This document shows, one piece after another, positions 1-26,533 of a stretch of 29,613 bases of DNA. Numbering within the stretch: position 1 is the stretch's first letter; each line of letters opens with the position of its first letter. The translations under genes were made by a program, and so were the position numbers. Source of the DNA: Gammaproteobacteria bacterium (GTDB taxonomy: Bacteria > Pseudomonadota > Gammaproteobacteria > JBPCXK01). The notes beneath the pieces are model-generated. The model was given only the letters and a program-made list of their open reading frames with translations. It made no database searches and was not told the origin of the DNA. The stretch covers positions 1 to 29,613 of the forward strand of contig JBPCXK010000123.1 of the NCBI GenBank assembly GCA_051008635.1. The letters run 5' to 3'.

Positions 1-603
1 ATCCTGGACGGTGAAAAAATAGTCACCGACTGCGGCGCCTACCTGTATACGTCGTCCTACAAGGATCGCAACAAATTCCGCTCCACTGCTTGTCACAACA
101 CCCCCCAGGTCGACGGCGAAGAAATCAATCGTTTTGTTCGGCCCGACTATTTGTGGAGCCTGCATTACGACGCGACGCCACAGGTGCATGCCTGGAATAC
201 CGACGGGCATATTACCGAATTCGTTGGTTCCCACGCCGGATATAGCAGACTGGAAGCGCAGCTTGCCCCGAAGCGTCGCATCAGACTGGAACACGCTTCG
301 CATACCCTGACGGTCACCGACGAAATCAGGGGCAGCGGCGACCACCACGTGGAGATACCGCTGCACCTGGCAGCCGGCGTGGACATCAGCGAACAAAACG
401 ACAACGGATTCTTGCTCGAAAAAAACGGCAAACTGTTTCGCCTGACCTGGCTCGCCAACGGTGGGTGGCAGGTCCGCAGAGAACCTGCCCGCGTATCTCC
501 CAGCTATGGGGTAGTTACGCGAACCCTCAAACTACTTTGGTGTTTCGACGGCTTGTTGCCTGCGAAGCTGGTGATCGTGGTCGTTCCGGTAACGAAGTTT
601 TAG
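1..603 (+). CDS. Heparinase II/III-family protein, C-terminal part (5' end outside window)
   Basis: Frame is open from base 1: ILDGEKIVTDCGAYLYTSSYKDRNKFRSTACHNTPQVDGEE. This matches the family pattern DxGxYxY...R..FRST..HNT..VDG and is followed by HAGY and a beta-rich tail. TAG at 601-603. Confidence 0.85.
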   Translation: MLDGEKIVTDCGAYLYTSSYKDRNKFRSTACHNTPQVDGEEINRFVRPDYLWSLHYDATPQVHAWNTDGHITEFVGSHAGYSRLEAQLAPKRRIRLEHASHTLTVTDEIRGSGDHHVEIPLHLAAGVDISEQNDNGFLLEKNGKLFRLTWLANGGWQVRREPARVSPSYGVVTRTLKLLWCFDGLLPAKLVIVVVPVTKF

Positions 604-613
604 CCCGCGTTTC

Positions 614-1411
614 TCACGGGGCGGGATATGCGGGATAGATCTCTCGAGACTTCAGAAACTCCCGGCAGCGATCGCATTTGGGATTATTTGCCTCGAGAAA
701 TGTATACACACTCATGTGCAGTGCAGGCAGTGGAAAGCGGCGGATGCTGACAGAGCCGAAGAAATGCCTGACCACGGAAACGATTTCATTGGCAGTGTTG
801 ACATGTTCATGGCGCATCAGGCTTTTGTAATCGAGACCGGTTCGTAGCCGATAAGCAATTCCAGTGGACATGCGCCAGGAAAGGCCCCAAAGCAGCCCGC
901 CCTCGCTCGGAATACCCGCCCTGAACGCACCGTGGGGGGCAAGCAGTAAGCCAGAGCGAGCAACGACCTCGGGCAGATCCAAGACATGCTCCAACACGGC
1001 TACAGACAAGATCGTCTGGTAGCGTGCGTCCTCGGGAATCTCTGCGATGTCTGAGTAGAAGTGTCTGATTTCCTGGCGATGAGACGAATCGGCGAACAAT
1101 TCCACGAAAGGCTCAACACAGTCGTATGTCTCTGCATTTTTTTCATACGCAACGTGATTCAGCGACCCGGCGCCGATTTCCAGAATGCGCCCCGTGTTGT
1201 TGGATGCAGCAACCTTGTGGTGCATCCAGGACTCCAAAAACTGCACGGCGCGTTGAAGCGTCCCTGCACCGGTACGATTTAGTTTGTACTCCTGCGTATA
1301 TATGTCCCTGTGCGCTTCCGTCATCGGCGGGCGAACACGTGGATAACTAGCCAAGAGCTCGTCGACCCTGTCCATGGCAGTTTGTCCAACCTTCGCACTT
1401 TCTTGTTTCAC
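614..1411 (-). CDS. Class I SAM-dependent methyltransferase (type A, copy 1)
   Basis: Motif I ILEIGAG, then VAVLEH, GIPSEGGLLWG and HEHVN. Paralog of 19633..20418. Confidence 0.85.
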   Translation of the reverse strand: MKQESAKVGQTAMDRVDELLASYPRVRPPMTEAHRDIYTQEYKLNRTGAGTLQRAVQFLESWMHHKVAASNNTGRILEIGAGSLNHVAYEKNAETYDCVEPFVELFADSSHRQEIRHFYSDIAEIPEDARYQTILSVAVLEHVLDLPEVVARSGLLLAPHGAFRAGIPSEGGLLWGLSWRMSTGIAYRLRTGLDYKSLMRHEHVNTANEIVSVVRHFFGSVSIRRFPLPALHMSVYTFLEANNPKCDRCREFLKSREIYPAYPAP

Positions 1412-1559
1412 AAAATCGCTTCGGTGATATTGTTAGCGGTGGCGGTCACGATGTGCAAGCGCTCGACGCAACGAGACGTTGTCTGATCTGCGCACAACCG
1501 GCGGGTCGCGCCAACTTTGCTATACAATGGCGCCTGCTATGCGGTTCAGCAACTCGTAA

Positions 1560-3257
1560 ATGCCTGTACTCCGATATTTGTTTGGAGTCGTACCCACTCG
1601 GGGCGCGCGGGAAACCGTGATAGTTTCAATTCTCGTCGTTGCGACCGCTGTCTTCGTGTCGTGGGAGCATATCAAACCTCTGAGCCTCCCGTTCCCTCCC
1701 GATCTGCATGCACGTTTGTCTTTTGAGATTGCCGTGAATCGGGTGTACTGTGGGATGACAAGTCACCTGATCACCCTGGCTTCAACGGAAGTAGCGGCCG
1801 GCGACCTCCAGCATATCCCGGCCGGTTCATTTCGCGACCTCGTACTGAGCAAGTCGCTGAGAGAATTCATATCAGAAAATACAGCTATCATCGATACACC
1901 GATTCGTCTTCTGGTCGAGCAGAACGCGGGCTCGCGCGAAATTTATTGCGCAGGGCAAGCGACTTCGTTTCTCAACAACGAGAATTCACTGATGTATCTG
2001 CATTCAGGGTTGCTGTCAGCAATTGGCGGCATCACGCCCTACCAGATCGGGCTTACTTTCAGATTCATCAGATTTGCCGCATTGATATTGTTTGCCGTCC
2101 TGTTGATCAGGGTGGGCTTCAGCCCGATCGTGTCGCTGCTGGCGCTCGTTGTGGCAACTTATACCGCGCATGTGGTTAGCACCACACACTACTACAGCAT
2201 CTATCCGTTTCTCGTTCCTGCCGTACTCTTCTTCATATCACTCTGCGGCCTGGCCCTTTCCGCTGAAACGCACCGGAGATGGCTGCCAACGATTGTTCTG
2301 GTCTTGCTGCTGGGATTTGCAGCCGCGGGAATCGTCAACGTGCGAACAAGCTATACAGTTGTCATTCTCTTTTTGTTCGGTTTGTTCCTGATGTTTGTCG
2401 TGGTGGAGTTGCTTCGAACCAGGAAAGAGAGTAGAGGCAGGACGTACCTGCTGGGTATCGCCGCAGCCGTTATGTTTGCGGTTGGTTATTCGGCGTTTAC
2501 AACGACGCTTATCAAACCGCTGACCAAGCTGAACACCCAGATGAACTATGCTCACCATCCGATTGCACACCCTCTGGTTCTGGGGCTCGCATGGCCTGAG
2601 AACGAGTTGTCCCGAGCGGAAGGCATCGAATGGAACGATGGTTTGGGCCTTGAGCTTGCGAGGCGCATCGATAACGACGTCACGTATCTCGGACCAACTT
2701 ATGAACAGGCGCTTTTTACGTATTACGCAAAGCTGTGGTTCTTTTACCCGGAGAGAATGCGGGCAGTATACGAGGCGAAGCTTCGCATGGCGGGGAGAAA
2801 CGGTGTCGACTATCTGTTAGGAAAGCTGAGGCAAAAAAACGACATGGCAAGCAAGCTGCAACGCCTGTTGCTCTGGCCGATAACCCTTTTCCCGGATGGA
2901 TTCGCTCTTTTCTTGGCTTACCTTGCCATTTGTGCGGCAACCTTGTTGCTGTGGTGTTTTCACAGAGCCCGTAGCGATATCGCGTATGTTTTGCTGGCCC
3001 TCGCGGGAGCAGCGACGTTGCTCCATCTGGAAGCAGCGATAATCATACCGGTCTTTAATCCTTCTCATCAAAGTTACCTGATGTTCTGGTTCTATATGGT
3101 CGGTATCCTGGTCTTTCAGCTTGCCGGCGCATCGACTGTTTATTTATCGGGCTTCATCGGAAAATTCCGCGCGAACGACCACAGCCCAGGTGACCGACAA
3201 GTGGTTGGGGGACATGATGATCGCAGGAAGCCTGAGCTCTTACGGGCAAAGACATAA
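1560..3257 (+). CDS. Polytopic membrane protein, putative GT-C-fold glycosyltransferase
   Basis: 565 aa. One N-terminal hydrophobic helix, a soluble loop, a run of hydrophobic helices, then a large loop (HHPIAHPLVLGL...GIEWND...TYLGPTYEQ) and further helices. Lies directly upstream of a polyprenyl-phosphate GT2. The CDS is secure; the GT-C call is inference. Confidence 0.6.
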   Translation: MPVLRYLFGVVPTRGARETVIVSILVVATAVFVSWEHIKPLSLPFPPDLHARLSFEIAVNRVYCGMTSHLITLASTEVAAGDLQHIPAGSFRDLVLSKSLREFISENTAIIDTPIRLLVEQNAGSREIYCAGQATSFLNNENSLMYLHSGLLSAIGGITPYQIGLTFRFIRFAALILFAVLLIRVGFSPIVSLLALVVATYTAHVVSTTHYYSIYPFLVPAVLFFISLCGLALSAETHRRWLPTIVLVLLLGFAAAGIVNVRTSYTVVILFLFGLFLMFVVVELLRTRKESRGRTYLLGIAAAVMFAVGYSAFTTTLIKPLTKLNTQMNYAHHPIAHPLVLGLAWPENELSRAEGIEWNDGLGLELARRIDNDVTYLGPTYEQALFTYYAKLWFFYPERMRAVYEAKLRMAGRNGVDYLLGKLRQKNDMASKLQRLLLWPITLFPDGFALFLAYLAICAATLLLWCFHRARSDIAYVLLALAGAATLLHLEAAIIIPVFNPSHQSYLMFWFYMVGILVFQLAGASTVYLSGFIGKFRANDHSPGDRQVVGGHDDRRKPELLRAKT

Positions 3258-3266
3258 AGGTACGAA

Positions 3267-4277
3267 GTGGACGACGACCGCGAAAGCGCGATCACGGATC
3301 CTGCTCTAGTCAGTATTACGATACCCGTTTTCAACGAAAACGCGGTTCTCCCGAAGCTGCTGGAGCGCCTCGCGGCTATCGCCAGGAGTCTGAAGTACAA
3401 ATACCGCTTTGAGTTCATCTTTGTGGATGACGGCAGCGACGACAATAGTCTCGACGTGCTGAGAGGTCTCGCGAGCCAGGACTCGCGCGTGCGCATACTG
3501 GAACTACGCCGCAACTATGGACAGACCGCAGCGCTACAAGCCGCCTTCGACACGGCGCGCGGCGCAATTATCATTTCAATGGATGCGGATCTGCAGCATT
3601 TTCCGGAAGACATCCCTTTGTTCCTGGAGAAAATAGAGGCAGGGAGCGACGTCGTGTGCGGATGGCGCCACCAAAGGCGCGAGGGAGTGATTCGCCGCTG
3701 GCCGTCGAAGATCGCCAATATTCTGATTCGCCGTGTTTCCGGCGTCAGCGTGCACGACATTGGCACGACTTTCCGCGCCTATCGGGCAGAAATCATTCGC
3801 GAACTGTTCCTGCTTGGCGAAAACCACCGATTCGTTCCCGTGTTCGCAAAGATGGCAGGCGCCAGAATCGACGAAGTGACGATCGAAAACATCCCCCGAC
3901 CGGCTGGGGAGTCGAGCTACGGGCTGTCGCGAACGGTCAATGTCTTCCTGGACTTGTTTTTCCTGTATTTCTATACCCATCACCTCGATCGGCCTCTACG
4001 CCTTTTCGGCAAAATAGCCTTGCTCTTGTTTCTGTTCGGCGGCGTGATCGCAAGTTGGTTATTGATACTTGCTCTCGTATACAACATTCCATCTGTGCGA
4101 GAGCATAGCGGCTGGTTCGTATTGTCCATGGTCATGTTTTTGACCGGTGTGCAATTGATATTGATCGGGATCGTTGCCGAAGTATTGGCAAGACTGTACT
4201 TTCAGCCAGGGAAAAGAACGCGCTATCGTGTGCGTCGGGAATGGGGCAACGTGGCGTCTTCCGGAGTCGAGTCCTGA
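3267..4277 (+). CDS. GT2 polyprenyl-phosphate glycosyltransferase (ArnC/GtrB/DPM1-like)
   Basis: IPVFNE, FVDDGSDD, RNYGQTAA, MDADLQH, VCGWR and two C-terminal TM helices. GTG start. Confidence 0.9.
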   Translation: MDDDRESAITDPALVSITIPVFNENAVLPKLLERLAAIARSLKYKYRFEFIFVDDGSDDNSLDVLRGLASQDSRVRILELRRNYGQTAALQAAFDTARGAIIISMDADLQHFPEDIPLFLEKIEAGSDVVCGWRHQRREGVIRRWPSKIANILIRRVSGVSVHDIGTTFRAYRAEIIRELFLLGENHRFVPVFAKMAGARIDEVTIENIPRPAGESSYGLSRTVNVFLDLFFLYFYTHHLDRPLRLFGKIALLLFLFGGVIASWLLILALVYNIPSVREHSGWFVLSMVMFLTGVQLILIGIVAEVLARLYFQPGKRTRYRVRREWGNVASSGVES

Positions 4278-4278
4278 T

Positions 4279-6243
4279 ATGTGCGGAATATTCGGGGTGT
4301 ACAGTTGGCGCAACGGAATTCACAACACCCATACGCTGTGCGCGCTGACAAACACCCTTCAACACAGAGGTCCGGACGACGGGGCTTACTGGACTGACAA
4401 CAGCTTTTTCTTCGGTCATCGCCGTCTGGCGATCATCGATCTGGTGCACGGGATACAACCGATGGCGACCCACGATGGGTTGGTCGTAGTCACCTTTAAC
4501 GGAGAAATATATAACTACATTGAGCTCCGCGCGCTGCTGGAACAGCGTGGTTATGTCTTCAGCACCAACTCAGACACAGAAGTGCTGCTTCACGGCTTTG
4601 TCGAATGGGGTACGCGCTTACCGGAACGATTAACAGGCATGTTCGCTTTCGCGATCGCAGACAGACGAGACAGGTCTCTGTTCCTTGCGCGTGACCCGTT
4701 TGGCGAAAAACCGCTGTTCCTGTTTGAGACTGCTGAAGGAGTGACATTTTCATCCGAGGTTCGGGCATTGGCGGCACTGCCGACATTGAGCGCCGCCGTT
4801 GATGGTGACGCGCTCGCTCGATACCTTTGCCTCAATTACGCGCCTGGCGAGCACACCCTTCTCGCCGGCGTGCGGCGCCTGAAGCCAGGTAACTGGCGAC
4901 TGTACGACAGCGCCGGAAAGACACGGGAGGAAACATATTGGTCGCCGCACGGCGCAGCCACAAGCGGGCTCGACGGGGCGACCGTAGAAGCGGCTGCGGA
5001 AAAACTGGGGCAGCGAATCGACAACGCGGTCGCGATCGCGCTGCGTAGTGACGTTCCCGTAGGTCTGTTCCTTTCGGGCGGAATGGATTCAGCGCTGGTA
5101 GCGGAAAGCGCGGTTCGACAGGGCGTTCTGGACCGTGCCTTCTGTCTCGACTTTGCCGAGTCGACGTTCAGCGAGTGGCACAAAGCCAGGCTCGTGGCAA
5201 TAAAGCTGGGCTTGCCGCTGACACGTGTCGTTCTCTCCTGTGATGTCATGGAGGATTTCCTGAGTATCGTTGCGCACGCGGATGACCCGCTGGCGGACTC
5301 ATCAGCGCTGGCCGTGTGGACGCTGGCAAGAGAGGCAGCCCGGCATCAAAAGGTGGTGATCAGCGGCGACGGAGGGGATGAGCTTTTTGCCGGCTACCTG
5401 ACATACAAAGCCACGCTGGCCCATAAGTATTTCGCGCGGTTGTTACCCGGCTGGGCACGACGAGGACTTGCCGGCCTGGGAGGGCTGATGCCAACAACCG
5501 AGAGGAAGGTGTCCGCCTCGTACAAGTTGATGCGGTATCTGCGGGCGGCTGACCTGCCGCCCGCACAAGCCCACTTCGCCTGGAACGGAGCATGGATGCC
5601 GGAAGAGGCGGCATCGTTGCTATTGGACGAGAACGCTCAGGAGACAGCCGCAGGATTTCTTGCGCATATCGCGAACCAACATAATTTGCCAAACGAGCCG
5701 GCTTTGACTGATTTACAACGCGCCGATGCCGAGGAATATCTGCCTAACGATATTCTGACCAAAGTCGACAGAATGAGCATGGCCCACGGGCTCGAGGTCC
5801 GCGCACCGCTATTGAACCCCGACGTGGCGAGGTTTGCGTTTGGCCTGCCCGACCGACTGAAGCTAAGCCCCGCGAGCAAGCCAAAGATGCTCCTGCGCGC
5901 GCTGGCGGAAAAAAAATACGGCCCCCAGATCAGCACGGCGGCGAAACAAGGGTTCAGCATTCCGATACACGCATGGCTTCGGGGCCCGGCTCGCTATCTG
6001 GTGGACGACTTGTTATCGACGACATCGGTGGAGAAGACCGGCATGCTGCGCAGCGAGGTAGTCGAGAGTGTAAAAAACCAACATATGTCCGGGCGGCGAT
6101 CTCTGGGCTACGAGCTTTGGGGACTCATGGTGTTTGTGGCATGGCACCGCGCGCGAGTTGAAACCAAACCGACTGCCTGTCCGGCAGATCTAAAGCAACT
6201 GTCGTTCGGCGCTGAAACTCGCCAACGGTACTTGAGCACGTAA
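4279..6243 (+). CDS. asnB: Asparagine synthase (glutamine-hydrolysing)-family amidotransferase, copy 1
   Basis: Start placed at ATG 4279 (MCGIFG, class II GATase N-terminal Cys). Also HRGPD, HRRLAIID, NGEIYNY, LSGGMDS, SGDGGDELFAGY and KVDRMSMAHGLEVRAP. Confidence 0.95.
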   Translation: MCGIFGVYSWRNGIHNTHTLCALTNTLQHRGPDDGAYWTDNSFFFGHRRLAIIDLVHGIQPMATHDGLVVVTFNGEIYNYIELRALLEQRGYVFSTNSDTEVLLHGFVEWGTRLPERLTGMFAFAIADRRDRSLFLARDPFGEKPLFLFETAEGVTFSSEVRALAALPTLSAAVDGDALARYLCLNYAPGEHTLLAGVRRLKPGNWRLYDSAGKTREETYWSPHGAATSGLDGATVEAAAEKLGQRIDNAVAIALRSDVPVGLFLSGGMDSALVAESAVRQGVLDRAFCLDFAESTFSEWHKARLVAIKLGLPLTRVVLSCDVMEDFLSIVAHADDPLADSSALAVWTLAREAARHQKVVISGDGGDELFAGYLTYKATLAHKYFARLLPGWARRGLAGLGGLMPTTERKVSASYKLMRYLRAADLPPAQAHFAWNGAWMPEEAASLLLDENAQETAAGFLAHIANQHNLPNEPALTDLQRADAEEYLPNDILTKVDRMSMAHGLEVRAPLLNPDVARFAFGLPDRLKLSPASKPKMLLRALAEKKYGPQISTAAKQGFSIPIHAWLRGPARYLVDDLLSTTSVEKTGMLRSEVVESVKNQHMSGRRSLGYELWGLMVFVAWHRARVETKPTACPADLKQLSFGAETRQRYLST

Positions 6244-6256
6244 GGTCGATATATCT

Positions 6257-6616
6257 ATGAAACCAGTTCAGATTTTTCTGTGCGTGGCCTGCATTTTGCT
6301 GATTACCGTTGGTCAGAGCCTGTTGAAGAAGGCCGTTGGGCATCATCACGACCTGGCCACTGTCCACGATATGCACGCACTGCTAACAAACGTCTGGTTA
6401 TGGCTGGGGTTCGGCGTCTATGGAATCTGCTTTGTTCTTTATCTGATTTTGCTGCGGGGCCTGCCGCTCGCATACGTCTACCCCGTCTTCGCCCTTACAT
6501 TCATCACCGTCCCCGTGACTGGTCTTGTCGTCTTCGGGGAAAAAATGACGCCGTATGGGTTTGCCGGCGGCGCATTTATCGTGCTCGGCATCTATTTGAT
6601 ATCGCGGCAATACTGA
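6257..6616 (+). CDS. SMR/DMT-family small membrane protein (ArnE/ArnF-like putative lipid-linked sugar flippase)
   Basis: 119 aa with four hydrophobic helices; GQSLLK, LPLAYVYP and GLVVFGEK motifs. Confidence 0.75.
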   Translation: MKPVQIFLCVACILLITVGQSLLKKAVGHHHDLATVHDMHALLTNVWLWLGFGVYGICFVLYLILLRGLPLAYVYPVFALTFITVPVTGLVVFGEKMTPYGFAGGAFIVLGIYLISRQY

Positions 6617-6638
6617 CGTTTGCCAACGGCAATCGTCA
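6614..6638. other. Stem-loop overlapping the SMR stop codon
   Basis: TGACG-T-TTGCC-AAC-GGCAA-T-CGTCA: 10 bp stem with one T/T mismatch and a 3-nt loop. No U-tract, so not called a terminator. Confidence 0.3.
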
Positions 6639-6825
6639 TAACCCCGCCGTCCGTCGCACCCCAGGCCCCGCCTGGATCAAGAAAGCCAGCCACTCGGCTT
6701 GCTGAGGGTCGTTTTTGCCATATAGTATCGGCACAGTTTTCGACCAACCCTGGAGCACGAGCCGCCACACCTCTCAGCCCGGAATGGGGCAGCGCGCGAC
6801 GCACGAAGTCCCTCGAGCAATCTGT

Positions 6826-7659
6826 ATGCAACAAAGCCAATCTATTCATCCGGACAAGCTGGAGATTCAGAAGCAGTGGGACACCGATCCGTGCGGCGCC
6901 TATACGGTCGACGACGTCCCGACCGAAACGCTGGAGTACTATCGGGCCATACGTAAACACCGTTATGACGAATACGCGCCATGGATGGGTGAGGCGATGG
7001 CGTTCTCGCGCTGGCAGGACAAAGACGTTCTGGAGATCGGTACGGGTGTGGGCAGCGACCATTTCCGCCTCGCCAGCCAAGGCAACCGCATGACCGCGCT
7101 CGATCTCAGTCGTGAGCATCTGCGCCACACATCGCGCCACCTCGAACTCGAAGGGCTGAGAACCGCGGCAATCTACGGTGATGCCGAGGGTATGCAGCTG
7201 GAAGACGAAAGCTTCGACCTCGTGTACTCCTTTGGCGTATTGCACCACACTCCTGACATTGCCAGAGCACTGTCGGAGGTCAAACGGGTGCTGCGGCCGC
7301 AGGGTACGGCGATCATTGGCCTATACCATCGCAATTCTGCTTTTTTCTGGCTCCGAACCATTGCAGAAAGAGGCATTGTCCGCGGCAGGCTGTTTACCCA
7401 AGGCTATCGTCGGTTGATGTCGGAGATCGAGGTGCGCACCGATCCCGACTCCGCGATACCCATCGTCAATGTCTATTCCAGACGCGAAGTTCGTCGCCTG
7501 TTCCGTAATTTCGCCTCGGTAAGTATCTCGGCACATCATATCGAGTGGCCACACCTCGGGATCCCACGAGGGCTATACCATGTGGTGGGGCGCGGGACGC
7601 TCGAGCGATTTGCAAGGGGCTTGGGGTGGTACCTGATTGTGCACGCTCATAAGGAATAG
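6826..7659 (+). CDS. Class I SAM-dependent methyltransferase (type B, copy 1)
   Basis: VLEIGTGVG, DAEGM, SFDLVYSFGVLHHTPD and RVLRPQG. Start at ATG 6826 is a judgement; the ORF is open from 6715. Confidence 0.9.
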   Translation: MQQSQSIHPDKLEIQKQWDTDPCGAYTVDDVPTETLEYYRAIRKHRYDEYAPWMGEAMAFSRWQDKDVLEIGTGVGSDHFRLASQGNRMTALDLSREHLRHTSRHLELEGLRTAAIYGDAEGMQLEDESFDLVYSFGVLHHTPDIARALSEVKRVLRPQGTAIIGLYHRNSAFFWLRTIAERGIVRGRLFTQGYRRLMSEIEVRTDPDSAIPIVNVYSRREVRRLFRNFASVSISAHHIEWPHLGIPRGLYHVVGRGTLERFARGLGWYLIVHAHKE

Positions 7660-7838
7660 TGCTCGTTTCCCGTATCGTTCGATCTCCGCCTGAAAAACCC
7701 ACAAAACCGCTTCGCAGGCCTGCCAGAAATAACTTCACATTTCTCGGCGGTCGCTCCTGCGTGTCCTGCGCCCGCGACACTTGCACATCCCTGTGCGACG
7801 TCTATCCATCCCGCGTGGCGGCGTTGCTTCGGCAGTTA

Positions 7839-7852
7839 AATAGCCGGCTATT
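7839..7852. promoter_or_regulatory. Perfect 14-bp palindrome upstream of wzx, possible operator
   Basis: AATAGCCGGCTATT is its own reverse complement and ends 43 nt before the wzx ATG. Confidence 0.3.
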
Positions 7853-7895
7853 CGCCTGCCTCGCGCCTTGCCACACGGGCGCCTGGACCTAAGAA

Positions 7896-9176
7896 ATGCG
7901 AACTTATTTCTGGCAGAACCCTAAAGCCCGCGCACAAGAGTTGCTGGCCCTGGACTTCGGTCGACAAGTCGCAGAGACCTTTGCGGTGCGCGTGCTGCTG
8001 ACAATCGTCTCCCTGATCACAACCGTATTGATCGCGCGGCTTTTGGGGCCGGACGGCAGAGGCCTGTATGCTGTTCTGATGACGATTGCGACCGTAGGCG
8101 TGCAGCTTGGCAACCTGGGCTTCCACTCATCCAACACGTACTACGTGGCCCAAAACAGGTCGCTCATGCCTACGCTGGCGAGTAATTCTCTTTTGCTGAG
8201 CGCATTCGCAGGCGGCGGCTGCGGCCTGTTGGCGTGGACACTGTTTGCGGCATGGCCGGAGGTCGCGCCGGCGCGCGGGAGCGTGTTGCTGCCTGCATTG
8301 ATCTGGATGCCAATCGGCCTTGCGTACCTGCTCCTGCAGAATCTTCTGCTCGGCATCCAGGATGTCCGCGCCTTCAACCTGATCGAGTTGGCGACCAGGC
8401 TGCTTGGGGTCGGGCTTATCGCAATTATCGTGTTGCTCGACCTGATATCCGTGCAGCAGTTGTTTGGCGCCGCCCTCATCGCGGTCGCACTCGGTGTGGT
8501 CTTCCTGATCTGGAGAATCTCACACCATATGTCTGGCTGGCTACCGCCATCAGTCGGGCTGATTCAGGAAAATATCCGTTATGGGCTCAAGGCATACCTC
8601 TCGGCGCTGTGTTCGTTCCTGGTGCTGCGCGTGGATGTCTTTATGGTGCAGCACATGCTGGGGAACGAGCAGACCGGCTACTATTCGATCGCGGTCGCCA
8701 TGGCGGATATGGTCCTGATGCTGCCTTTAGTGATCGGCATGCTTTTGTTTCCGAAACTTACGGCCATGCAGAATGCTGAGCACAAATGGTCGGCCACAGG
8801 TCGCGTGCTGAAGCTCACCGGCATGAGCATGGCCGTGCTGGGCGTCATAGCCGCACTTGTCGCAGAACCTCTGGTTCGGATGCTGTTTGGCGGCGAATTC
8901 AGCCCCGCGGTGCCGGCATTTATGTGGCTCATTCCCGGAGTCGTGTTGCTCTCTATAAACATGATTCTGATGAACTACTTTGCTGCCATAGGCATGCCCG
9001 CCATCACGGTGTACTCGCCACTCCTGGCGACGGTGGTAAACGTCGGCCTCAACATCGAGCTGATACCGCACTGGGGCATCTCAGGGGCAGCTATGGCTTC
9101 GACGCTTGCGTATGGGTTGATGCTGTTTGCGAGCATCATCTACTTGAAGAAAGAAAAACAAAAGCGCCAAGCATGA
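7896..9176 (+). CDS. wzx: Wzx-type oligosaccharide flippase (MOP superfamily)
   Basis: 426 aa, hydrophobic throughout; ARLLGPDGRG, LRVDVFM, GYYSIAV and LIPHWGISGAAMAS motifs. Confidence 0.9.
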   Translation: MRTYFWQNPKARAQELLALDFGRQVAETFAVRVLLTIVSLITTVLIARLLGPDGRGLYAVLMTIATVGVQLGNLGFHSSNTYYVAQNRSLMPTLASNSLLLSAFAGGGCGLLAWTLFAAWPEVAPARGSVLLPALIWMPIGLAYLLLQNLLLGIQDVRAFNLIELATRLLGVGLIAIIVLLDLISVQQLFGAALIAVALGVVFLIWRISHHMSGWLPPSVGLIQENIRYGLKAYLSALCSFLVLRVDVFMVQHMLGNEQTGYYSIAVAMADMVLMLPLVIGMLLFPKLTAMQNAEHKWSATGRVLKLTGMSMAVLGVIAALVAEPLVRMLFGGEFSPAVPAFMWLIPGVVLLSINMILMNYFAAIGMPAITVYSPLLATVVNVGLNIELIPHWGISGAAMASTLAYGLMLFASIIYLKKEKQKRQA

Positions 9177-10006
9177 CAACCTTACCCTTTCGTGAATTCG
9201 ACCGCAGCTATCAAGACGCCGTTGTCTCGGTTCTGAAGTACTGGACTCGCGACATGCAGACCGAAATCGCGCGGCACTGCTACGACTGGGGGCCGGGACG
9301 CACCGACTTCACCGAGTATCTCGAATCTTCATCGGTACGCTACTACAGGGCCTATGAAGTGATTTCGCAGAATAGTTATGGTCAGAACGTTTGCGACATC
9401 GGCGGTCTCTGGGGCGTCTTACCGCTGACACTCAAAATGCTGGGATTCGAGAACGTTACGATGACCGAGTCGCTCAAGTACTACAGCCAGGCCTATGATT
9501 CATTGTTCGGCTACATCGCGGACAACGGCGTTCGCATCCATGATCTTGATCCGTTCGAGGGCGACCCACAGCTTCCACAAAAATTTGATGTCATTACAGT
9601 CATGGCCGTGCTCGAGCACTATCCTCATTCCCTCAAGACAGTCATGGCAAACCTCATTGCCATGCTGCCGGACAGCGGACGCCTGTACATCGAAGTACCC
9701 AACATTGCCTACTGGCCCAAAAGAACCGATCTGTTGCTGGGCCGATCGCCTCTCGCGAATCTGGCGTCAATTTATCAGTCGCAAACCCCTTTCATAGGAC
9801 ATCACCACGAGTTCACCATTTCAGAGCTGCGTGAGCTCATCAGGCTCAGTGGGCTCAAAGTTGTTGCCGAGCACTTCTACAACTATTCGGACGTCAGGAC
9901 CAAGTCGTGGTCTCAGAGGCTGCGCCACCCAGTCTTGAATCTGATATACACGCTACTGCGGGACAGCCGGGAAGTTCTGGCAGTCGAGACAACGAAGTGC
10001 CGGTAA
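9173..10006 (+). CDS. Class I SAM-dependent methyltransferase (type C)
   Basis: ATGA overlap with the wzx stop. VCDIGGLWG, FDVITVMAVLEH, LYIEVPN and HHHEF. Confidence 0.85.
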   Translation: MTTLPFREFDRSYQDAVVSVLKYWTRDMQTEIARHCYDWGPGRTDFTEYLESSSVRYYRAYEVISQNSYGQNVCDIGGLWGVLPLTLKMLGFENVTMTESLKYYSQAYDSLFGYIADNGVRIHDLDPFEGDPQLPQKFDVITVMAVLEHYPHSLKTVMANLIAMLPDSGRLYIEVPNIAYWPKRTDLLLGRSPLANLASIYQSQTPFIGHHHEFTISELRELIRLSGLKVVAEHFYNYSDVRTKSWSQRLRHPVLNLIYTLLRDSREVLAVETTKCR

Positions 10007-10080
10007 CAAACGGAAACTCGGCACAGCGAAATGGCCGAGCCGCAGGGACTGATTTCGGTTTGAAAAAGACATACAAGATC

Positions 10081-10111
10081 GTAAGGTGGGTTGAGCGCAG
10101 CAATACCCACC
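10081..10111 (+). repeat. REP-like palindrome
   Basis: GTAA-GGTGGGT-TGAGCGCAGCAAT-ACCCACC: 7-bp stem with a GTA tetranucleotide foot; core shared with the other REPs. Confidence 0.65.
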
Positions 10112-10157
10112 ATTACCAGTTCACATTACAAAGAACACACCGGTCTGGAGACCACGA

Positions 10158-11831
10158 GTGATCTGCGCTCTCACCGCCTACCCTCTTTCGCAGCTGTTCA
10201 AGCAGGAGTTTGAAACCACCATCGGCGCGGTACCGCAATACATGACGCTTGCGGAACTTCGGCGCATGACGTGGAAGGATCTGATTGCAAGGTTACGCTC
10301 GTCAGACGCAGACAAGTTCATTATCCCGTTGGAAGACGTGAGCGCCAGCGCCCTGCTTCCCGTGCTCGAGGTCGTGGCTGCGATCTCGAAGGCCGGCTCA
10401 ATAGAAGTCGTTTATCCCGATCTCAAATCCAGGCAAGTGCAGCGATGGCAGGTAGCCGCCTCGCTGGTATTCCTGCTTGCCTGCTCCGTTTCCGCGGCCG
10501 TAGCCGCCGTGGTATGCAAACTGCAGTTGTTCTATCTTTCCACGCAAAAACGCATTGTTGCCCACCGCAAGCAATCGAACAGCATCCTGTATTTGAAGAC
10601 CAACTTCTGGATAGGCGTCAAAGCAGGGGGCTCGGTTGGACACATAGCCGGCGTCGTGAATGCATTGATGGAACGGGGTCTCGGCGTTGATTTCGCGTCC
10701 GCGCAAGCGCCGGCCATGGTCAGACCCGGAGTCCGATTTCTCCTCGTACCCTTCCCCAAAGGTTTCGGTTTGCCGCCGGAACTGAATCTATATCGATTTC
10801 AGCGGCATTTTGTAAGCAAGGTGCGAAGCGCCATACGCAACAGAGAGCATTCTTTTATCTATCAGAGAATGTCCCTTTCGAACTATGCCGGCGTGATACT
10901 GTCCCGGCAAAGAGGGATTCCGCTCGTACTGGAGTACAACGGTTCGGAGGCGTGGGTGGCGAAAAACTGGGGACGCCCACTCGTGTTTCAACGGCTCGCC
11001 GTCCACGTTGAAAATGTCTGCCTGAAGCACGCTCACCTGGTCGTTACGGTCTCGGACGTACTGCGACAGGAGCTGATCAACCGCGGCGTCGAACCGGAGC
11101 GCATAGTGTGTTATCCGAACTGCGTCGATCCCGAGATCTTCGACCCTGAAAAATTCGGGCCTGAGAAACGCACACAGCTGCGCAAACAACATGGCATCAG
11201 GGAAAACGCCATCGTCGCCACCTTTGTCGGCACTTTCGGCCAATGGCACGGCGTCGACGTCCTCGCCCGCGCTATCAGACACTTACGGGACACGGAACCT
11301 GCGTGGCTCGAACAACATGACGTCCACTTTTTGCTGGTCGGTGACGGCCTGAAGATGCCTGAGGTAAGAGAAATCCTGGGCAACGATAGCTGCAGCGAAT
11401 TCGTGACCATCACCGGTCTCGTTCCTCAAGCGCAGGCGCCGGACTATCTGGCCATTTCGGATATTCTGCTCTCGCCACATGTCGACAATACCGATGGCAG
11501 TCGTTTCTTCGGCTCTCCTACCAAGTTGTTCGAATACATGGCCATGGGCAAGGCTATCGTCGCATCAGACCTGGAACAAATCGGTGAAATTCTCGACGGT
11601 TCACAGCACGTCGACCAGCTCGATTCATCCGATGGCGCCGAACGAGCTCTACAGGGCTGCGCGCTTCTGGTTTCGCCGGGCGCGGTCGAAGAGCTGGAAA
11701 CCGCGATCCGATTCATGGTAAAAAACGCGGGCGCTCGGGTCGCGATGGGGAGAATGGCGAGGGAGAGGGTACTAGAAAAATATACATGGAAGCATCACGT
11801 TGAGGCGCTTTTTCGAGGCCCGATTTCATGA
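10158..11831 (+). CDS. GT4 glycosyltransferase with N-terminal extension
   Basis: GTG start after GGAG. KAGGSVGH, LEYN, HAHLVVTVS, PNCVD, FVGTFGQWHG and SPTKLFEYMAMGKAIVASD. Confidence 0.9.
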   Translation: MICALTAYPLSQLFKQEFETTIGAVPQYMTLAELRRMTWKDLIARLRSSDADKFIIPLEDVSASALLPVLEVVAAISKAGSIEVVYPDLKSRQVQRWQVAASLVFLLACSVSAAVAAVVCKLQLFYLSTQKRIVAHRKQSNSILYLKTNFWIGVKAGGSVGHIAGVVNALMERGLGVDFASAQAPAMVRPGVRFLLVPFPKGFGLPPELNLYRFQRHFVSKVRSAIRNREHSFIYQRMSLSNYAGVILSRQRGIPLVLEYNGSEAWVAKNWGRPLVFQRLAVHVENVCLKHAHLVVTVSDVLRQELINRGVEPERIVCYPNCVDPEIFDPEKFGPEKRTQLRKQHGIRENAIVATFVGTFGQWHGVDVLARAIRHLRDTEPAWLEQHDVHFLLVGDGLKMPEVREILGNDSCSEFVTITGLVPQAQAPDYLAISDILLSPHVDNTDGSRFFGSPTKLFEYMAMGKAIVASDLEQIGEILDGSQHVDQLDSSDGAERALQGCALLVSPGAVEELETAIRFMVKNAGARVAMGRMARERVLEKYTWKHHVEALFRGPIS

Positions 11832-11844
11832 GGAGAGTCAAGAA

Positions 11845-13404
11845 TTGAAAGTCACTGAGTGGGATCTGTCCCCACTGATTGTTTTTGTCCTGGCATATAT
11901 TGTAACGGGTTATGTGGGGGTCATGCTGTTGCTGTACGGGCCGCCCGCTTACAGTCATCTCTACACCTACTTCTCCGGCGTTGAGGTACCCGCCTTCACG
12001 GCGCAGGAGCGTTCGAAACTGCTCTATTTGCTGCATCTTCCAATCCTGGCTCTCGGTGCGGCCTACGCGGCAACGACGGTGATGCTGAAATCTTTGTGGA
12101 ACACTCGGAATACAAGCAACGCGGGGATTGAGTCTGGAACGGTACCAGCGGGGTTACTCCTGTTATCGATACTCGTTGCCATGATATCGCTCTACCGCGG
12201 AGAGGCGTTCGCCAATGCGGGCGCGTGGCTGGATCATGACCGATGGATTGCGATGCGCTGGCAGTTGTTCGACAGATTGTCGTTCTTCGAATTCGTCAAC
12301 ATCTATGTATTGATGCCCGCCTTGTCCGCGCTGGTAATAGTTCATCTGGGCGCTCGCAGATGGGTCTTGTCGGTAGCGGTAGTGACTATCGGCCTGGCGC
12401 TTTCTTTGCTGCTGTTCCAGAAGAAGCAGGTGATTGTCTACCTGCTGTTCGTTGCGGTGGCGTACACCCTGAGGAGGGGCGGCAACGCGCGGATCTGGCG
12501 CAATATGGTGATTGGCGGGGTGGCAATCGTGGGCGCCTATGTTGCCCTGGTGATCGTCCCGACGTTGGGGAAAGGCGATCTGTCTTCGATAGAGCGCATC
12601 AGCAGAGGCGATCCGGTCAGCATGGACTTCGCTAAGTTGGCCAGCGAGTCTCGTGAAGAAAAAAGGGATCAGGAAGTCGCCCGCAGATCCCCAAGAACCG
12701 CGGTTGGCGACGACTCTCCGGATTCCGAGAGCAATGACGGTTTCACGAAATTGGCGGATAGCCGTGACAAAAGTCCGGCCGCAGACGAACCACACCTGAT
12801 GAGTTTGTTCCGTACGCAAGTCTTCGAAGACACTGTCAATCACTACCTGGAGATGGAGTCCCGGGGCCAACAACTGTTGTATACGATGAGCTCGGTCATC
12901 TTTCGTTGCTCCGCTCCTGCGATCTTCTATCCAAGAATCTTCCCTGAACAACATCCATTTTACGGGCTGGATCTGCCCTTCGACCGGATGGCCGCCGATG
13001 ACAACCGCGTGGTGTGGAACTTCATGTGGCCGAACACACCGGGCGGCAGCATCGCGTCCGCGGTGCAGTTCTCGTTGTACGCCCAGATCGGCGTGCCGGG
13101 TGCGATCTTCTGGAGCGGGGCAGTCGGCGCGTTTCTGGCCCTCCTCTGGTTTGCAATGACCGCCGGTTGGTTCAGAAGATCACTTGCAGCCGTGTGGGGA
13201 ACGACCGTTGTGATGTTTGCAATATTCCTGGCCATAGACAGCCTGCGCAACGCATTGATAGTGAGCTATGGCATGATCTGGGCACTTATGCTGGTAGCAG
13301 CAATGGAACTCACGTTTCGCCTCATGGAGCGACAACGCGCGGGGGCCCTCCACCCCCCCAACTCGATTCGGCGCACCATCCCGACTTCCGCAACTCAGGG
13401 CTGA
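11845..13404 (+). CDS. Polytopic membrane protein, probable Wzy O-antigen/EPS polymerase
   Basis: TTG start after GAGGAG. Many hydrophobic helices, a large polar loop, QKKQ and FR motifs; located in a wzx-containing operon. Wzy proteins are poorly conserved, so the call is largely contextual. Confidence 0.6.
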   Translation: MKVTEWDLSPLIVFVLAYIVTGYVGVMLLLYGPPAYSHLYTYFSGVEVPAFTAQERSKLLYLLHLPILALGAAYAATTVMLKSLWNTRNTSNAGIESGTVPAGLLLLSILVAMISLYRGEAFANAGAWLDHDRWIAMRWQLFDRLSFFEFVNIYVLMPALSALVIVHLGARRWVLSVAVVTIGLALSLLLFQKKQVIVYLLFVAVAYTLRRGGNARIWRNMVIGGVAIVGAYVALVIVPTLGKGDLSSIERISRGDPVSMDFAKLASESREEKRDQEVARRSPRTAVGDDSPDSESNDGFTKLADSRDKSPAADEPHLMSLFRTQVFEDTVNHYLEMESRGQQLLYTMSSVIFRCSAPAIFYPRIFPEQHPFYGLDLPFDRMAADDNRVVWNFMWPNTPGGSIASAVQFSLYAQIGVPGAIFWSGAVGAFLALLWFAMTAGWFRRSLAAVWGTTVVMFAIFLAIDSLRNALIVSYGMIWALMLVAAMELTFRLMERQRAGALHPPNSIRRTIPTSATQG

Positions 13405-13661
13405 AACGATAGTAAGTCGTTGATTTTTGGTTGCGGGAGGCCCAGGGGTCGGCACTACAAAGCATCGACCCGATGAGTGGCGGGGGGAGGTGCGCCTACG
13501 CCGAGATTCCTGGGGGTGGTTGCTCGAGAAACTGCGCCAACGTAGTCCTGTCGCTGGTGTTGCCCGGCATCACCTCATAGGCCAGCGGGAAACCTTGTGC
13601 GGTCACGATCAACGCGATCACCACCTGCACGCAGTCCGGGCGCTGGTCGCGCGCGACTATA
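13380..13661 (-). mobile_element. IS1634-family remnant (3' end with internal deletion)
   Basis: Minus strand encodes RDQRPDCVQVVIALIVTAQGFPLAYEVMPGNTSDRTTLAQFLEQ, a typical IS1634 DDE segment, fused to QPPPGISA (resembles the C-terminal QPPP motif). This is followed by GTAGTGCCGACC...AAAATCAACGACTTAC...GAGTTGCGGAAGTCGGG, which I recall as an IS1634-like right end. Confidence 0.75.
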
Positions 13662-13691
13662 GGCGTGTCGCAAAAGTCCACGACGGCACCC

Positions 13692-13724
13692 GTAGGTTGG
13701 CGCTGAGCGAAAGCGAAGCCCAAC
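13692..13724 (+). repeat. GTAG-type REP
   Basis: GTAG-GTTGGCGCTGAGCGAAAGCGAAGCCCAAC, nearly identical to the copies at 18550 and 26438. Confidence 0.8.
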
Positions 13725-13929
13725 TGCAGTACCGCGGTGTCCGTAGCAAGCTGTCGGCTGGTCTCGACAGACCTTTGGTCCGCGCAACGGGTACCAGAAT
13801 ATCAGTCAAATAAACCGCTCATCGGCCATTACCACGAGTTCGCTATCGTGATGTGCGCGGGCTGGGTATCCGAGTAAATCCAAAGCTTTAAGGCACCTCG
13901 ATGTTGTCAGATTCTCGGCCCTGGTCGGA

Positions 13930-14082
13930 GCAATATTTCTTGCAATCGACAGTCTACGCAACGCGCTGATAGTGAGCCACGGTGTGATTCGGGCGCTCAT
14001 GCCGGTAAGCATGGAGATCGCGTTTCGATGCAGCGAGCAAAGATGCCAGCGCATACAGCTACCCTGTAGCAGGGTTGCTTAG
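13930..14082 (+). pseudogene. Relic 3' end of a second wzy-like allele
   Basis: Encodes AIFLAIDSLRNALIVSHGVIRALMPVSMEIAFR versus AIFLAIDSLRNALIVSYGMIWALMLVAAMELTFR from 13219 onward. TAG at 14080-14082. Confidence 0.85.
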
Positions 14083-14084
14083 GA

Positions 14085-15791
14085 TTGGAAACTTCTTTCC
14101 GGTACCCGTTCGACCAGAACCCTCATAGCGTGCGCGCCTGTGCTGCTACGATTTCCCGATACTTCCATACGCTTCGTTATCTGAAGCGAAGCCAGATCGT
14201 CGGGCGGCTGCTGCACCGCCTGTCGCGTCCGCAACCGGATTTACGCTCCGCCCCACCCTTGCGAAACCGCGCCGAAAATCGTGGCATCCCGGGGCCGGCG
14301 GAACCGCCCTGTCTGCTGGAGAAGTGGCGGTTTCGCTTTCTCAATGAAGACCACGCCCTCCAGTCGGCCTCGGACTGGAACAACCCGCACTGGGAAAAAT
14401 TGTGGCTCTACAACCTCCATTATTTTGGCGACCTCAATGCTGCCGAGTCTGCAGATCGGCAACACCGGCATCAAGAGCTGATCGAAAAGTGGATACGCGA
14501 GAACCTGCCGGGCCACGGCGTCGGCTGGGATCCGTATCCAACTTCGCTGAGGATTGTTAACTGGATCCAATGGGCACTGAGATTCGGCGCCCTCTCCGGC
14601 AACGCCGCGCAATCCCTTGCTGTGCAGACACGCTGGTTGCGGCGACGCCTGGAGTGTCATCTTCTTGGCAATCATCTTTTCGCGAACGCCAAAGCTCTCG
14701 TGTTCGCCGGCCTTTTCTTCGACGGTGAAGAGGCCGATCGCTGGCTGCGGCAGGGGCTGACGCTTCTCGACAGCCAGATCGGCGAGCAGATACTTGCCGA
14801 CGGCGGCCATTTCGAGCGCAGCCCGATGTACCACTCCATGATCCTCGAAGACGTGCTGGATTTGATCAGCCTTTTCAGAGTTTTTGACCGAAAGACACCC
14901 GAGCAGTGGCTTGATGCGGTCACGCGCATGCATCGTTGGTTGCGCGTCATGACCCATCCGGACGGCAACATTTCGTTCTTCAACGACGCCGCAGTGGGCG
15001 TCGCCGCCTCGCCGGCAGAACTTGACGAATACACATCGAGACTCGCACTTGAACCACCTGAACCGTCGGGCGCTGGCCTGACCCTGCTGGAGGACAGCGG
15101 CTATGCGCGACTCCGCGCCGGACAGGCGACACTATTGGTGGACGTCGCTCCGGTCGGGCCCGACTACCTGCCCGCACACGCGCATGCGGACGCATTGAGC
15201 TTCGAACTTTCCGCCGACAGCCGGAGAGTACTGGTCAATTCCGGCACTTCGGTATACGGCAACGGCGCCGAACGTAAGCGGCAACGCGGTACGGCGGCTC
15301 ATAACACAGTGTGTATCAATGATGAGGATTCATCGGAAGTCTGGGATGCATTCCGGGTCGCGCGACGCGCAAGAGTCTTCAACGTCGAATCGGCATCGGA
15401 CGACACATTACACATAGCCGCCGCGCATGATGGATATCGACACCTCTTCGGGAGACCGATACATCGTCGCCGGTGGGCAATGACTGAAAATGAATTGATC
15501 GTTGAGGATGGTATTTCAGGGACTGGCATCCACAAAATTGAAATTCGATTCCACGCACACCCGGAATTCGCCATTCACAAAGCTACCGGTAACAGGTTCG
15601 AATTTCGAGACGCCGCAGATTCTACAGTGCTCGAGATGCAGCTGGATGATCAGCTGGCAAGCCGCATAGAAGCAAGTTCCTACCATAGCGAGTTCGGCCT
15701 GTCCCAACCGAATCAGGTGGTTTCAGGTGTATTTATCGGGGCGCTTCCCATCAAACTAAGCTCGCGCATGGCCTGGCCGCGAGACGGCTGA
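14085..15791 (+). CDS. Heparinase II/III-family protein
   Basis: LWLYNLHYF, WDPYPTSLRIVNW, GNHLFANAKAL, DGGHFERSPMYH, HAHADALSFEL and RGTAAHNTV. True start could be GTG 14130. Confidence 0.92.
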   Translation: METSFRYPFDQNPHSVRACAATISRYFHTLRYLKRSQIVGRLLHRLSRPQPDLRSAPPLRNRAENRGIPGPAEPPCLLEKWRFRFLNEDHALQSASDWNNPHWEKLWLYNLHYFGDLNAAESADRQHRHQELIEKWIRENLPGHGVGWDPYPTSLRIVNWIQWALRFGALSGNAAQSLAVQTRWLRRRLECHLLGNHLFANAKALVFAGLFFDGEEADRWLRQGLTLLDSQIGEQILADGGHFERSPMYHSMILEDVLDLISLFRVFDRKTPEQWLDAVTRMHRWLRVMTHPDGNISFFNDAAVGVAASPAELDEYTSRLALEPPEPSGAGLTLLEDSGYARLRAGQATLLVDVAPVGPDYLPAHAHADALSFELSADSRRVLVNSGTSVYGNGAERKRQRGTAAHNTVCINDEDSSEVWDAFRVARRARVFNVESASDDTLHIAAAHDGYRHLFGRPIHRRRWAMTENELIVEDGISGTGIHKIEIRFHAHPEFAIHKATGNRFEFRDAADSTVLEMQLDDQLASRIEASSYHSEFGLSQPNQVVSGVFIGALPIKLSSRMAWPRDG

Positions 15792-15812
15792 CGATAGTTT
15801 AACACTGCGGCA

Positions 15813-16982
15813 ATGCGAATCCTGATTCTCAGCTTTTACTACCCACCGGATCTTTCGGCCGGGTCCTTTCGGACGCAGGGGCTCGTCAAAGCGTTGGAAG
15901 AAAAGATGTCGCCAAATGGAGAGATTGAAGTTGTAACCAGTCTCCCGAACCGCTATCACTCCCTGTCAACGGACGCGGATGAAGTGGAAGAAAACGGCGC
16001 TGTCCGCATCAAGCGGATACCGGTTCCATCGCATCGCAGCGGCCTGATCGATCAGTCTGTTGCATTTGGCGTCTTTGCTCTAAAGGCCTTTTCGTATGCA
16101 AGGCGCGGGAACTACGATCTTGTCTATGCGACCTCTTCCCGCTTGTTCACGGCTTTTCTCGGCGCCGTAATCGCCAGGCGCAGTAATATTCCGCTCTATC
16201 TCGATATCCGGGATATCTTTGTGGACACGATTCAGGAAGTGCTGCCACGAAGCCTGGGATTGGGGTTGCTGCCTACTCTGCGGGCGATCGAACGATACAC
16301 CATAAAAGCAGCGGCTCGCGTCAATTTGGTGTCCGAAGGATTCAGGCAATACTTCAGGAGCGGGTATCCCAATCAGACTTTCTCTTTCTTTCCCAATGGG
16401 ATCGACGAAGAATTTCTTGGCGTCGACTTCACCAAAGCTGAAACGAACAAAACACCGATTGTTCTGTACGCCGGCAACATCGGAAAAGGACAAGGACTCG
16501 ACAAAATCGTTCCGGAGTTGGCCAGCAAATCAATGGAGCACGAATTCTGGATCGTCGGAGACGGTGGCGCAAAACAGCCGCTCGAGAAGGGCCTGCGAAA
16601 GAAAGGCGCAGAAAATGTAAGGCTATCAACCCCGATCAATAGATCAAGACTCATTCAGCTGTATGCTGACGCCGATTATTTGTTTCTGCACTTGAATGAC
16701 TACCAGGCATTCAGGAGAGTGTTGCCCTCGAAGATATTCGAGTACGCGGCAACCGGAAAACCGATACTGGCCGGCGTCGATGGCTATGCGGCCGATTTTC
16801 TGCGCGAGAATGTAGACAATGTGGCGGTGTTTCCGCCTTGCGACGCGTCCGCGGCCGTGGATGCCATCCAAACGCTGTCCGAACGGCATACGCCACGCCC
16901 CAAGTTCATCAGCCGATTCGAAAGGAAGCTGGTAATGCGTGGACTTGCGGCAGACCTGCTTATGCTGCAGTTGCGCAATTAG
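15813..16982 (+). CDS. GT4 glycosyltransferase (WbuB-like)
   Basis: SFYYPPD, YATSSRL, LDIRD, YAGNIG and LPSKIFEYAA. Confidence 0.9.
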   Translation: MRILILSFYYPPDLSAGSFRTQGLVKALEEKMSPNGEIEVVTSLPNRYHSLSTDADEVEENGAVRIKRIPVPSHRSGLIDQSVAFGVFALKAFSYARRGNYDLVYATSSRLFTAFLGAVIARRSNIPLYLDIRDIFVDTIQEVLPRSLGLGLLPTLRAIERYTIKAAARVNLVSEGFRQYFRSGYPNQTFSFFPNGIDEEFLGVDFTKAETNKTPIVLYAGNIGKGQGLDKIVPELASKSMEHEFWIVGDGGAKQPLEKGLRKKGAENVRLSTPINRSRLIQLYADADYLFLHLNDYQAFRRVLPSKIFEYAATGKPILAGVDGYAADFLRENVDNVAVFPPCDASAAVDAIQTLSERHTPRPKFISRFERKLVMRGLAADLLMLQLRN

Positions 16983-17006
16983 GGAATGCTGATCAAGTCC
17001 GATCCG

Positions 17007-26437: not shown

Positions 26438-26469
26438 GTTGGGCTTCGCTGCGCTCAGCGCCAACCTAC
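26438..26469 (-). repeat. GTAG-type REP
   Basis: GTTGGGCTTCGCTGCGCTCAGCGCCAAC-CTAC, one nucleotide longer than the 18550 copy. Confidence 0.8.
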
Positions 26470-26533
26470 GTTTTACAACACTCGCTGAAGCTGCTCCCAC
26501 AAGCGGGCAAAGACTCACTCAGAGCCCTGCTTA

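Follow-up and report, generated by a model that had tools for sequence, protein, structure and literature searches.

A truncated remnant of a second Wzy-like gene at a mobile element-scarred joint in the polysaccharide locus of an uncultured cave gammaproteobacterium

The polysaccharide locus and the resident Wzy-like gene

The DNA analyzed here (the window) was the stretch of 29,613 nucleotides of contig JBPCXK010000123.1 from a gammaproteobacterial MAG (GCA_051008635.1; 866 contigs and 80% complete) and it lay within a large Wzx-type polysaccharide locus. A left block with the order Wzx-MT-GT4-polymerase opened with a Wzx-type flippase gene (positions 7896-9176, + strand; Pfam Polysacc_synt_3 and Polysacc_synt) and included a 557 aa GT4 glycosyltransferase (10158-11831, +; Pfam GT4 domains) directly upstream of the gene for a Wzy-like polytopic membrane protein (11800-13404, +), which is referred to below as the resident gene and had an open reading frame (ORF) of 534 aa with a called product of 519 aa starting near 11845. 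The right block consisted of a heparinase II/III-like gene (heparinase #2; 14085-15791, +; Pfam Hepar_II_III_N and Hepar_II_III_C) and a GT4 glycosyltransferase gene (15813-16982, +; identified by Pfam and synteny) that was paired with it in all related clusters. Between the two blocks lay a spacer of 0.5 kb followed by a fragment of a second Wzy-like gene (the relic). The window was a mosaic with duplicated modules including two heparinase-like genes, two AsnB genes, and several methyltransferases, and no further relics of oxidoreductase, Wzx, or GT4 genes were found in it.

Comparison of window positions 1-17000 with related loci (L020, L021, L023, L042, L067, L068, and L070) revealed a conserved core of heparinase-like #1, MT, Wzx, GT4 (~560 aa), a polymerase slot, an ADH/GFO fusion oxidoreductase (~710 aa), heparinase-like #2, and GT4 (~393 aa). 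The core was seen in Tepidicaulis marinus, an Acidobacteria MAG, a Bacteroidales MAG, and several metagenome contigs, and its conservation ranges from Alphaproteobacteria to Bacteroidota and Acidobacteriota. To our knowledge, no characterised product has been assigned to this cross-phylum heparinase/Wzx/polymerase/oxidoreductase cluster. Orthologue identities to the core were 50-56% for the GT4 upstream of the resident gene (43-56% against the same-slot gene of related loci), 48-55% for heparinase #2, and 52-55% for the downstream GT4. The polymerase slot itself varied and is swap-prone, with L070 holding a member of the resident family (E 3e-141) and the otherwise syntenic L067 holding a non-member of 427 aa (family HMM E 4).

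The window differed from the core in lacking the oxidoreductase and in carrying a 7-kb insertion that separates heparinase #1 from Wzx. Contig C338 of the assembly abutted the left end of the window, where a truncated heparinase-like gene (1-603) continued from the end of C338 (…HGHNDCLSFEAIL / ILDGEKIVTDCG…; loci concerned L055 and L061), and this contig bore an ADH/GFO fusion oxidoreductase of 713 aa (39% identical).

The resident protein had no Pfam match at E<=0.01 (nor at E<=1) and no NCBIfam match at E<=1, the curated Wzy-type models at issue being Pfam PF14296, PF04932, PF01901, and PF06899 and the NCBIfam Wzy models. Among 60 family members, 0/60 had a significant Pfam match, the best being Wzy_C at E 0.015 with 3/60 at that level or weaker. 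A PF14296 search of 81 genomes gave zero matches with the controls likewise at zero and so carried no information, and a sequence and profile search of the PDB with the resident protein returned no relevant match. The family was sparse: a profile search of 1.84 billion representatives yielded ~330 clusters at 50% identity. Hydropathy analysis identified 9-11 hydrophobic segments (i.e., ~10 or more TM) and a large hydrophilic loop at approximately residues 255-430 that bears the conserved R369, D391, D395, and DDN400-402, such that the predicted topology was that of Wzy proteins (polytopic, ~10-14 TM, and a large hydrophilic loop). In the ESM Atlas, the resident protein scored TM 0.59/0.69 to the PF14296 cluster and 0.59/0.67 to the WzyE cluster, with feature scores of 0.97-0.98 versus Wzy-named clusters. 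It was the sole polymerase candidate in a cluster holding a Wzx flippase and glycosyltransferases; the window also encodes GT-C-like membrane proteins, among which no Wzy-model match was found. Topology, gene context, and Atlas similarity make "wzy" a reasonable, if predicted, label for the resident gene.

The C-terminal motif of the resident protein (AIFLAIDSLRNALIVS, encoded at 13219-13266, +) was compared across the family. In an alignment of 93 members that have the motif, D7, R10, Y17, and G18 were invariant (93/93) and S8, N11, S16, and W21 were present in 84-89/93, giving the signature LAxDSxRNSxxxSYGxxW and bearing out the suggestion of the first-pass annotation that the motif is constrained. 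Residues conserved along the whole protein were R153, Y169, Q207, R369, D391, D395, D480, R483, Y490, G491, and W494. Loci L015 and L016 held the nearest relatives of the resident gene (38% identical); both loci share the gene order Wzx-MT-GT4-polymerase with the window, and in both the polymerase gene ends the operon.

The relic and the joint between the gene blocks

The relic comprised the last ~55 codons of a second Wzy-like gene (13915-14082, +), lacking a start codon and ending with a TAG at 14080-14082. Its ~165 bases correspond to the last tenth (roughly 10%) of such a gene and are part of a frame (13852-14082) that is open over 76 codons up to the same stop. The peptide encoded at 13930-13977 (AIFLAIDSLRNALIVS) was the same as that at 13219-13266 of the resident gene in 16/16 residues, with the DNA identical at 40/48 nt and the differences being 8 synonymous and 0 non-synonymous; this recount agreed with the first-pass annotation, as did the looser homology that followed. 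In simulations on the 16-codon core, the probability that 8 random substitutions would all be silent was P ~5e-6 to 1.5e-5. Of the differences in the following 23 aligned codons (45/69 nt identical), ~16 were non-synonymous and 8 synonymous; there was also an indel of one codon, and the looser homology ran on up to the TAG. Over all 39 aligned codons, dS was ~1.2, dN ~0.2, dN/dS ~0.17, and pS 0.6.

The sole matches of the resident protein in a tblastn search of its own 4.8-Mb genome were its own gene and positions 13915-14046 (E 5e-8, 64% over 46 aa). A family HMM built from 22 members and run on all frames of 13380-14100 matched 13921-14061 (E 9e-12) with model positions 438-484 of 501 (i.e., the last 47), and no second match was found anywhere in that interval in any frame. 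Upstream of the motif, the relic frame held no ATG, GTG, or TTG. The relic is homologous to a functional gene, yet it is truncated and not translatable as such.

An extension of the relic upstream to 13851 was considered and rejected. The strings MCAGW (13851) and MTAGW (13156), which had been put forward as a possible further match, are present, but their similarity was at chance level since 418/500 and 738/1000 shuffles scored as well as the upstream local DNA alignments. As the alignment scored like an average shuffle and the HMM was silent in frame, the relic is placed at ~13915-14082 rather than 13851-14082.

The spacer that separates the resident gene from the relic contained two features unremarked in the first-pass annotation. 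Following the resident stop codon, 13405-13519 gave no match in homology searches including Rfam (scan of 13300-14250 without a match). Positions 13520-13654 on the - strand encode 45 codons of an IS1634-family DDE transposase (residues in part RDQRPDCVQVVIALIVTAQGFPLAYEVMPGNTSD) matching NCBIfam NF033559 at profile positions 157-201 of 483 (E 4.7e-14). Scoring 49-52 bits where the cut-off is 100 and covering 45/483 positions, this is a fragment of an IS1634 member, not a member gene, and amounts to dead scrap. In comparison with IS1634-family insertion sequences, the scrap aligns with the part of the DDE transposase that surrounds its first catalytic Asp, whereas only ~9% of the gene is left and no ends were identified. 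The genome has two full IS1634-type genes (contigs C639 and C791); these were considered as kin of the scrap and rejected as they had no similarity to it.

The second feature was a REP-like interspersed repeat of 64 nt (13662-13725), one of >60 genomic copies identified by BLAST (73 hits on 57 contigs of the MAG). Copies of the repeat often occurred as inverted pairs 30-60 nt apart, a partial copy lay at 26438-26470 in the window, and hairpin prediction was no better than for shuffled sequences (z -1.15). The rest of the spacer (13726-13914), which holds MCAGW at 13851, was without detectable homology by HMM and shuffled alignment. Given the IS1634 fragment and the REP-like repeat in the spacer, the relic lies at a non-homologous joint scarred by a mobile element.

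On the other side of the relic, the longest heparinase #2 ORF starts at TTG 14085 (568 aa) and extends ~15 codons beyond its homologues, which are mostly 540-556 aa long and start ~5 residues before RYFxTLR; on account of this common start position, GTG 14130 (553 aa) is likely the true start. The spacing of 2 nt reported between the TAG of the relic and the heparinase ORF consequently holds for TTG 14085, while the homologue-fitting GTG 14130 leaves a gap of 47 nt. The nearest relatives of this heparinase were at most 57% identical.

The motif DNA of the relic reads as a sigma-70-like TCGACA-16-GATAGT at 13946-13973, ~110-160 nt upstream of the heparinase start, and that of the resident gene as TAGACA-16-GATAGT at 13235-13262, both being consensus matches only. 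In a bolder version of the interpretation given below, the relic might have been kept because its motif DNA now drives the heparinase-GT4 pair, which the IS would have cut from its operon.

Both blocks had the order and orientation of the Tepidicaulis, Acidobacteria, and Bacteroidales clusters. The synteny proposed as a check across the junction was in this respect maintained, but the adjacency of polymerase and heparinase is absent from related clusters. Across 7 distinct related clusters, represented by 8 loci, the gene directly preceding the heparinase gene was the ADH/GFO oxidoreductase and never the polymerase gene. As related clusters place the oxidoreductase before heparinase #2, the relic-heparinase adjacency is a derived state here, and the proposal that the parent of the relic was the original neighbour of the heparinase gene found no support in these clusters.

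Origin of the relic and history of the joint

With silent sites near saturation while the peptide was held, the relic derives from a once-functional homologue deeply diverged from the resident gene. The dS of ~1.2, the dN/dS of ~0.17 over 39 codons (a check suggested beforehand), and the exclusively silent changes in the core support the earlier proposal of a functional, independently evolving parent. The relic has H at Y17 (Y in 93/93 of the family) and R at W21 (W in 89/93) along with an L to P change, and these replacements would fit modest neutral drift after inactivation. Relic and resident gene share the minority residue states F3, A12, A22, and M24, and when the relic was compared with 150 family representatives and 35 fetched loci, its best match was the resident gene (69% over 39 aa; next best 42%), for which reasons the two are each other's closest known kin.

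An intact allele was sought by word-indexed and profile searches with the resident protein followed by tblastn and blastp of the relic against all matches, in which the resident gene was always best. Nothing among the 150 family representatives (drawn from 1.84 billion proteins) or the 35 fetched loci came nearer to the relic than the resident gene, and no intact relic-type gene was found in genome_contigs, metagenome_contigs, the organism's own genome, or 60 same-class genomes. The full-length second allele expected by the first-pass annotation thereby failed to appear, an absence that is weak evidence because sampling of the lineage is essentially nil. In the collections searched, the organism itself had no near relative (60 same-class genomes; best heparinase match 57%).

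The homology, truncation, and selection signature of the relic, together with the IS fragment and the conserved synteny of both blocks, point to a non-functional 3' remnant of a second Wzy-like gene that was probably left by an IS-associated rearrangement joining the two blocks. In the proposed sequence of events, two genes of one Wzy-like family would have diverged with both under purifying selection, after which the second would have lost its first ~90% in an illegitimate, insertion sequence-associated rearrangement. The same event would have joined the Wzx-MT-GT4-polymerase block to the heparinase-GT4 block, leaving its scars in the 0.5-kb spacer (the IS1634 scrap and filler DNA that could not be assigned), where the REP-like repeat is also found, and the remnant would subsequently have undergone the small drift (Y to H, W to R, and L to P). 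The scrap's position, and that only, suggests that it had a part in the rearrangement.

The rearrangement may have been an exchange of the polymerase slot in which one allele functionally replaced the other. That the relic records such an exchange between two alleles of an unnamed Wzy-like family within the cross-phylum cluster is a tentative reading, to which we give clearly less than even credence. The displacement of the relic's parent by an incoming block, as previously proposed, gained no support: no better-matching allele was found and neither GC nor tetranucleotide composition had a break across the junction. Incongruence between the GT4 and polymerase trees was not significant (AU p 0.125); the resident gene grouped firmly with L015/L016 in the polymerase tree (alternative rejected, p 1e-5), and the GT4 data did not reject the same grouping (p 0.125). 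Either block may be the incoming one: the resident gene may have arrived together with its GT4 and overwritten an earlier polymerase-heparinase arrangement, as the first-pass annotation proposed, or a heparinase-GT4 block may have been imported with the relic as its ragged edge.

Among the alternatives, a recent partial duplication of the 3' end of the resident gene with neutral decay since is suggested by the two copies lying 0.7 kb apart on the same strand, but all 8/8 core differences were silent (P ~1e-5) and pS was 0.6 overall. Neutral decay that deep would have erased the peptide identity, and this explanation is consequently refuted with virtually no probability left to it. Another alternative is a pair of tandem paralogues, in which two intact family genes would have stood side by side until an IS1634 insertion and later deletions destroyed the downstream copy; each gene would perhaps have served one of the two modules of the locus, and nothing would have been imported or replaced. 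Such a history would suit the duplicated modules of the window (heparinase-like x2, AsnB x2, and several methyltransferases), the mutual closest kinship of relic and resident gene, and the lack of a compositional break. It would also need a very old duplication with both copies long intact to account for a dS of ~1.2, and 0/35 related loci had two family genes within 6 kb; with one family gene per locus in 35/35 loci, tandem pairs are not a known arrangement. We regard tandem paralogues as unlikely.

A chimeric contig was also weighed, in which the MAG assembly would have joined two loci via the REP element at 13662-13725 and the relic would be real, truncated, and beside the heparinase gene all the same, though no neighbour of the resident gene. 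The fragmented assembly (866 contigs at 3-6x word depth) leaves room for this, and the region was present at that depth in three cave-metagenome runs, where Logan contigs supported each flank: the pair 13002-13463 and 13170-13633 linked the resident gene with the IS scrap, and the pair 13918-14321 and 13964-14309 linked the relic with the heparinase gene. With a few SNPs among them and separate samples as their source, these contigs place both flanks in more than one strain or sample. The contigs broke at the repeat and none among those listed bridged the REP copy (13634-13917). Of the concern raised earlier that the junction is an assembly chimera, the doubt over the unbridged REP copy therefore stands while both flanks were confirmed in independent samples. 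Against a chimera, depth was similar on both sides of the junction in run X1, reads probably exceed the 64-nt repeat in length (an assumption), and the join reproduces the GT4-polymerase ... heparinase-GT4 order and orientation of other phyla. Conserved order and orientation on both sides make a chimeric contig unlikely, and we consider it highly improbable.

Logan contigs of run X3 agreed with the window to the right of 13286 and of 11712, but before these points they had 255 nt of unlike sequence, the 30-mers of which were absent from the MAG. They may represent a strain mosaic that broke within the polymerase gene and at the 3' end of the GT4, or unitig artefacts.

Comparison with known polymerases and O-antigen clusters

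The resident family resembles the Wzy/WzyE polymerases (PF14296 O-ag_pol_Wzy, PF06899 WzyE, and PF04932 Wzy_C) in polytopy, the hydrophilic loop, and conserved Arg/Asp residues, and the resident gene likewise lies beside a Wzx flippase and glycosyltransferases. It differs from them in having its own C-terminal signature and in being unrecognised by the curated HMMs. The silent-only divergence of the motif between relic and resident gene, along with its conservation across the family, marks LAxDSxRNSxxxSYGxxW as a functionally constrained signature and provides a handle for annotating this unannotated Wzy-like family.

Remnants of this kind have been described in the O-antigen gene clusters of Salmonella enterica (B1, D1, D2, and D3), where non-functional wzy remnants occur with IS fragments, IS remnants (H-repeat) lie at recombination joints, and the wzy remnants were read as footprints of one antigen form arising from another (Reeves et al., 2013, PMC3715488). 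In both systems, a truncated polymerase piece lies between intact genes with an IS fragment beside it while another wzy works. The putative replacing gene here is a homologue immediately upstream, in contrast to the unrelated wzy at a distant locus in Salmonella. Direction and history are known for Salmonella because sister serogroups keep intact alleles at the same site, whereas no sister genome or intact allele was found here, and the organism is an uncultured cave-metagenome bacterium without serology for which "serotype switch" can be used by analogy only.

The relic is genuine, yet it is a commonplace trace of gene-cluster reshuffling and otherwise an ordinary pseudogene. The kind of feature is already known and the new part is its instance in an unsampled lineage and an unnamed polymerase family. 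The relic indicates that the surface-polysaccharide clusters of an uncultured cave bacterium evolve like enterobacterial O-antigen clusters, with polymerase genes exchanged or lost at IS-scarred joints and datable remnants left behind.
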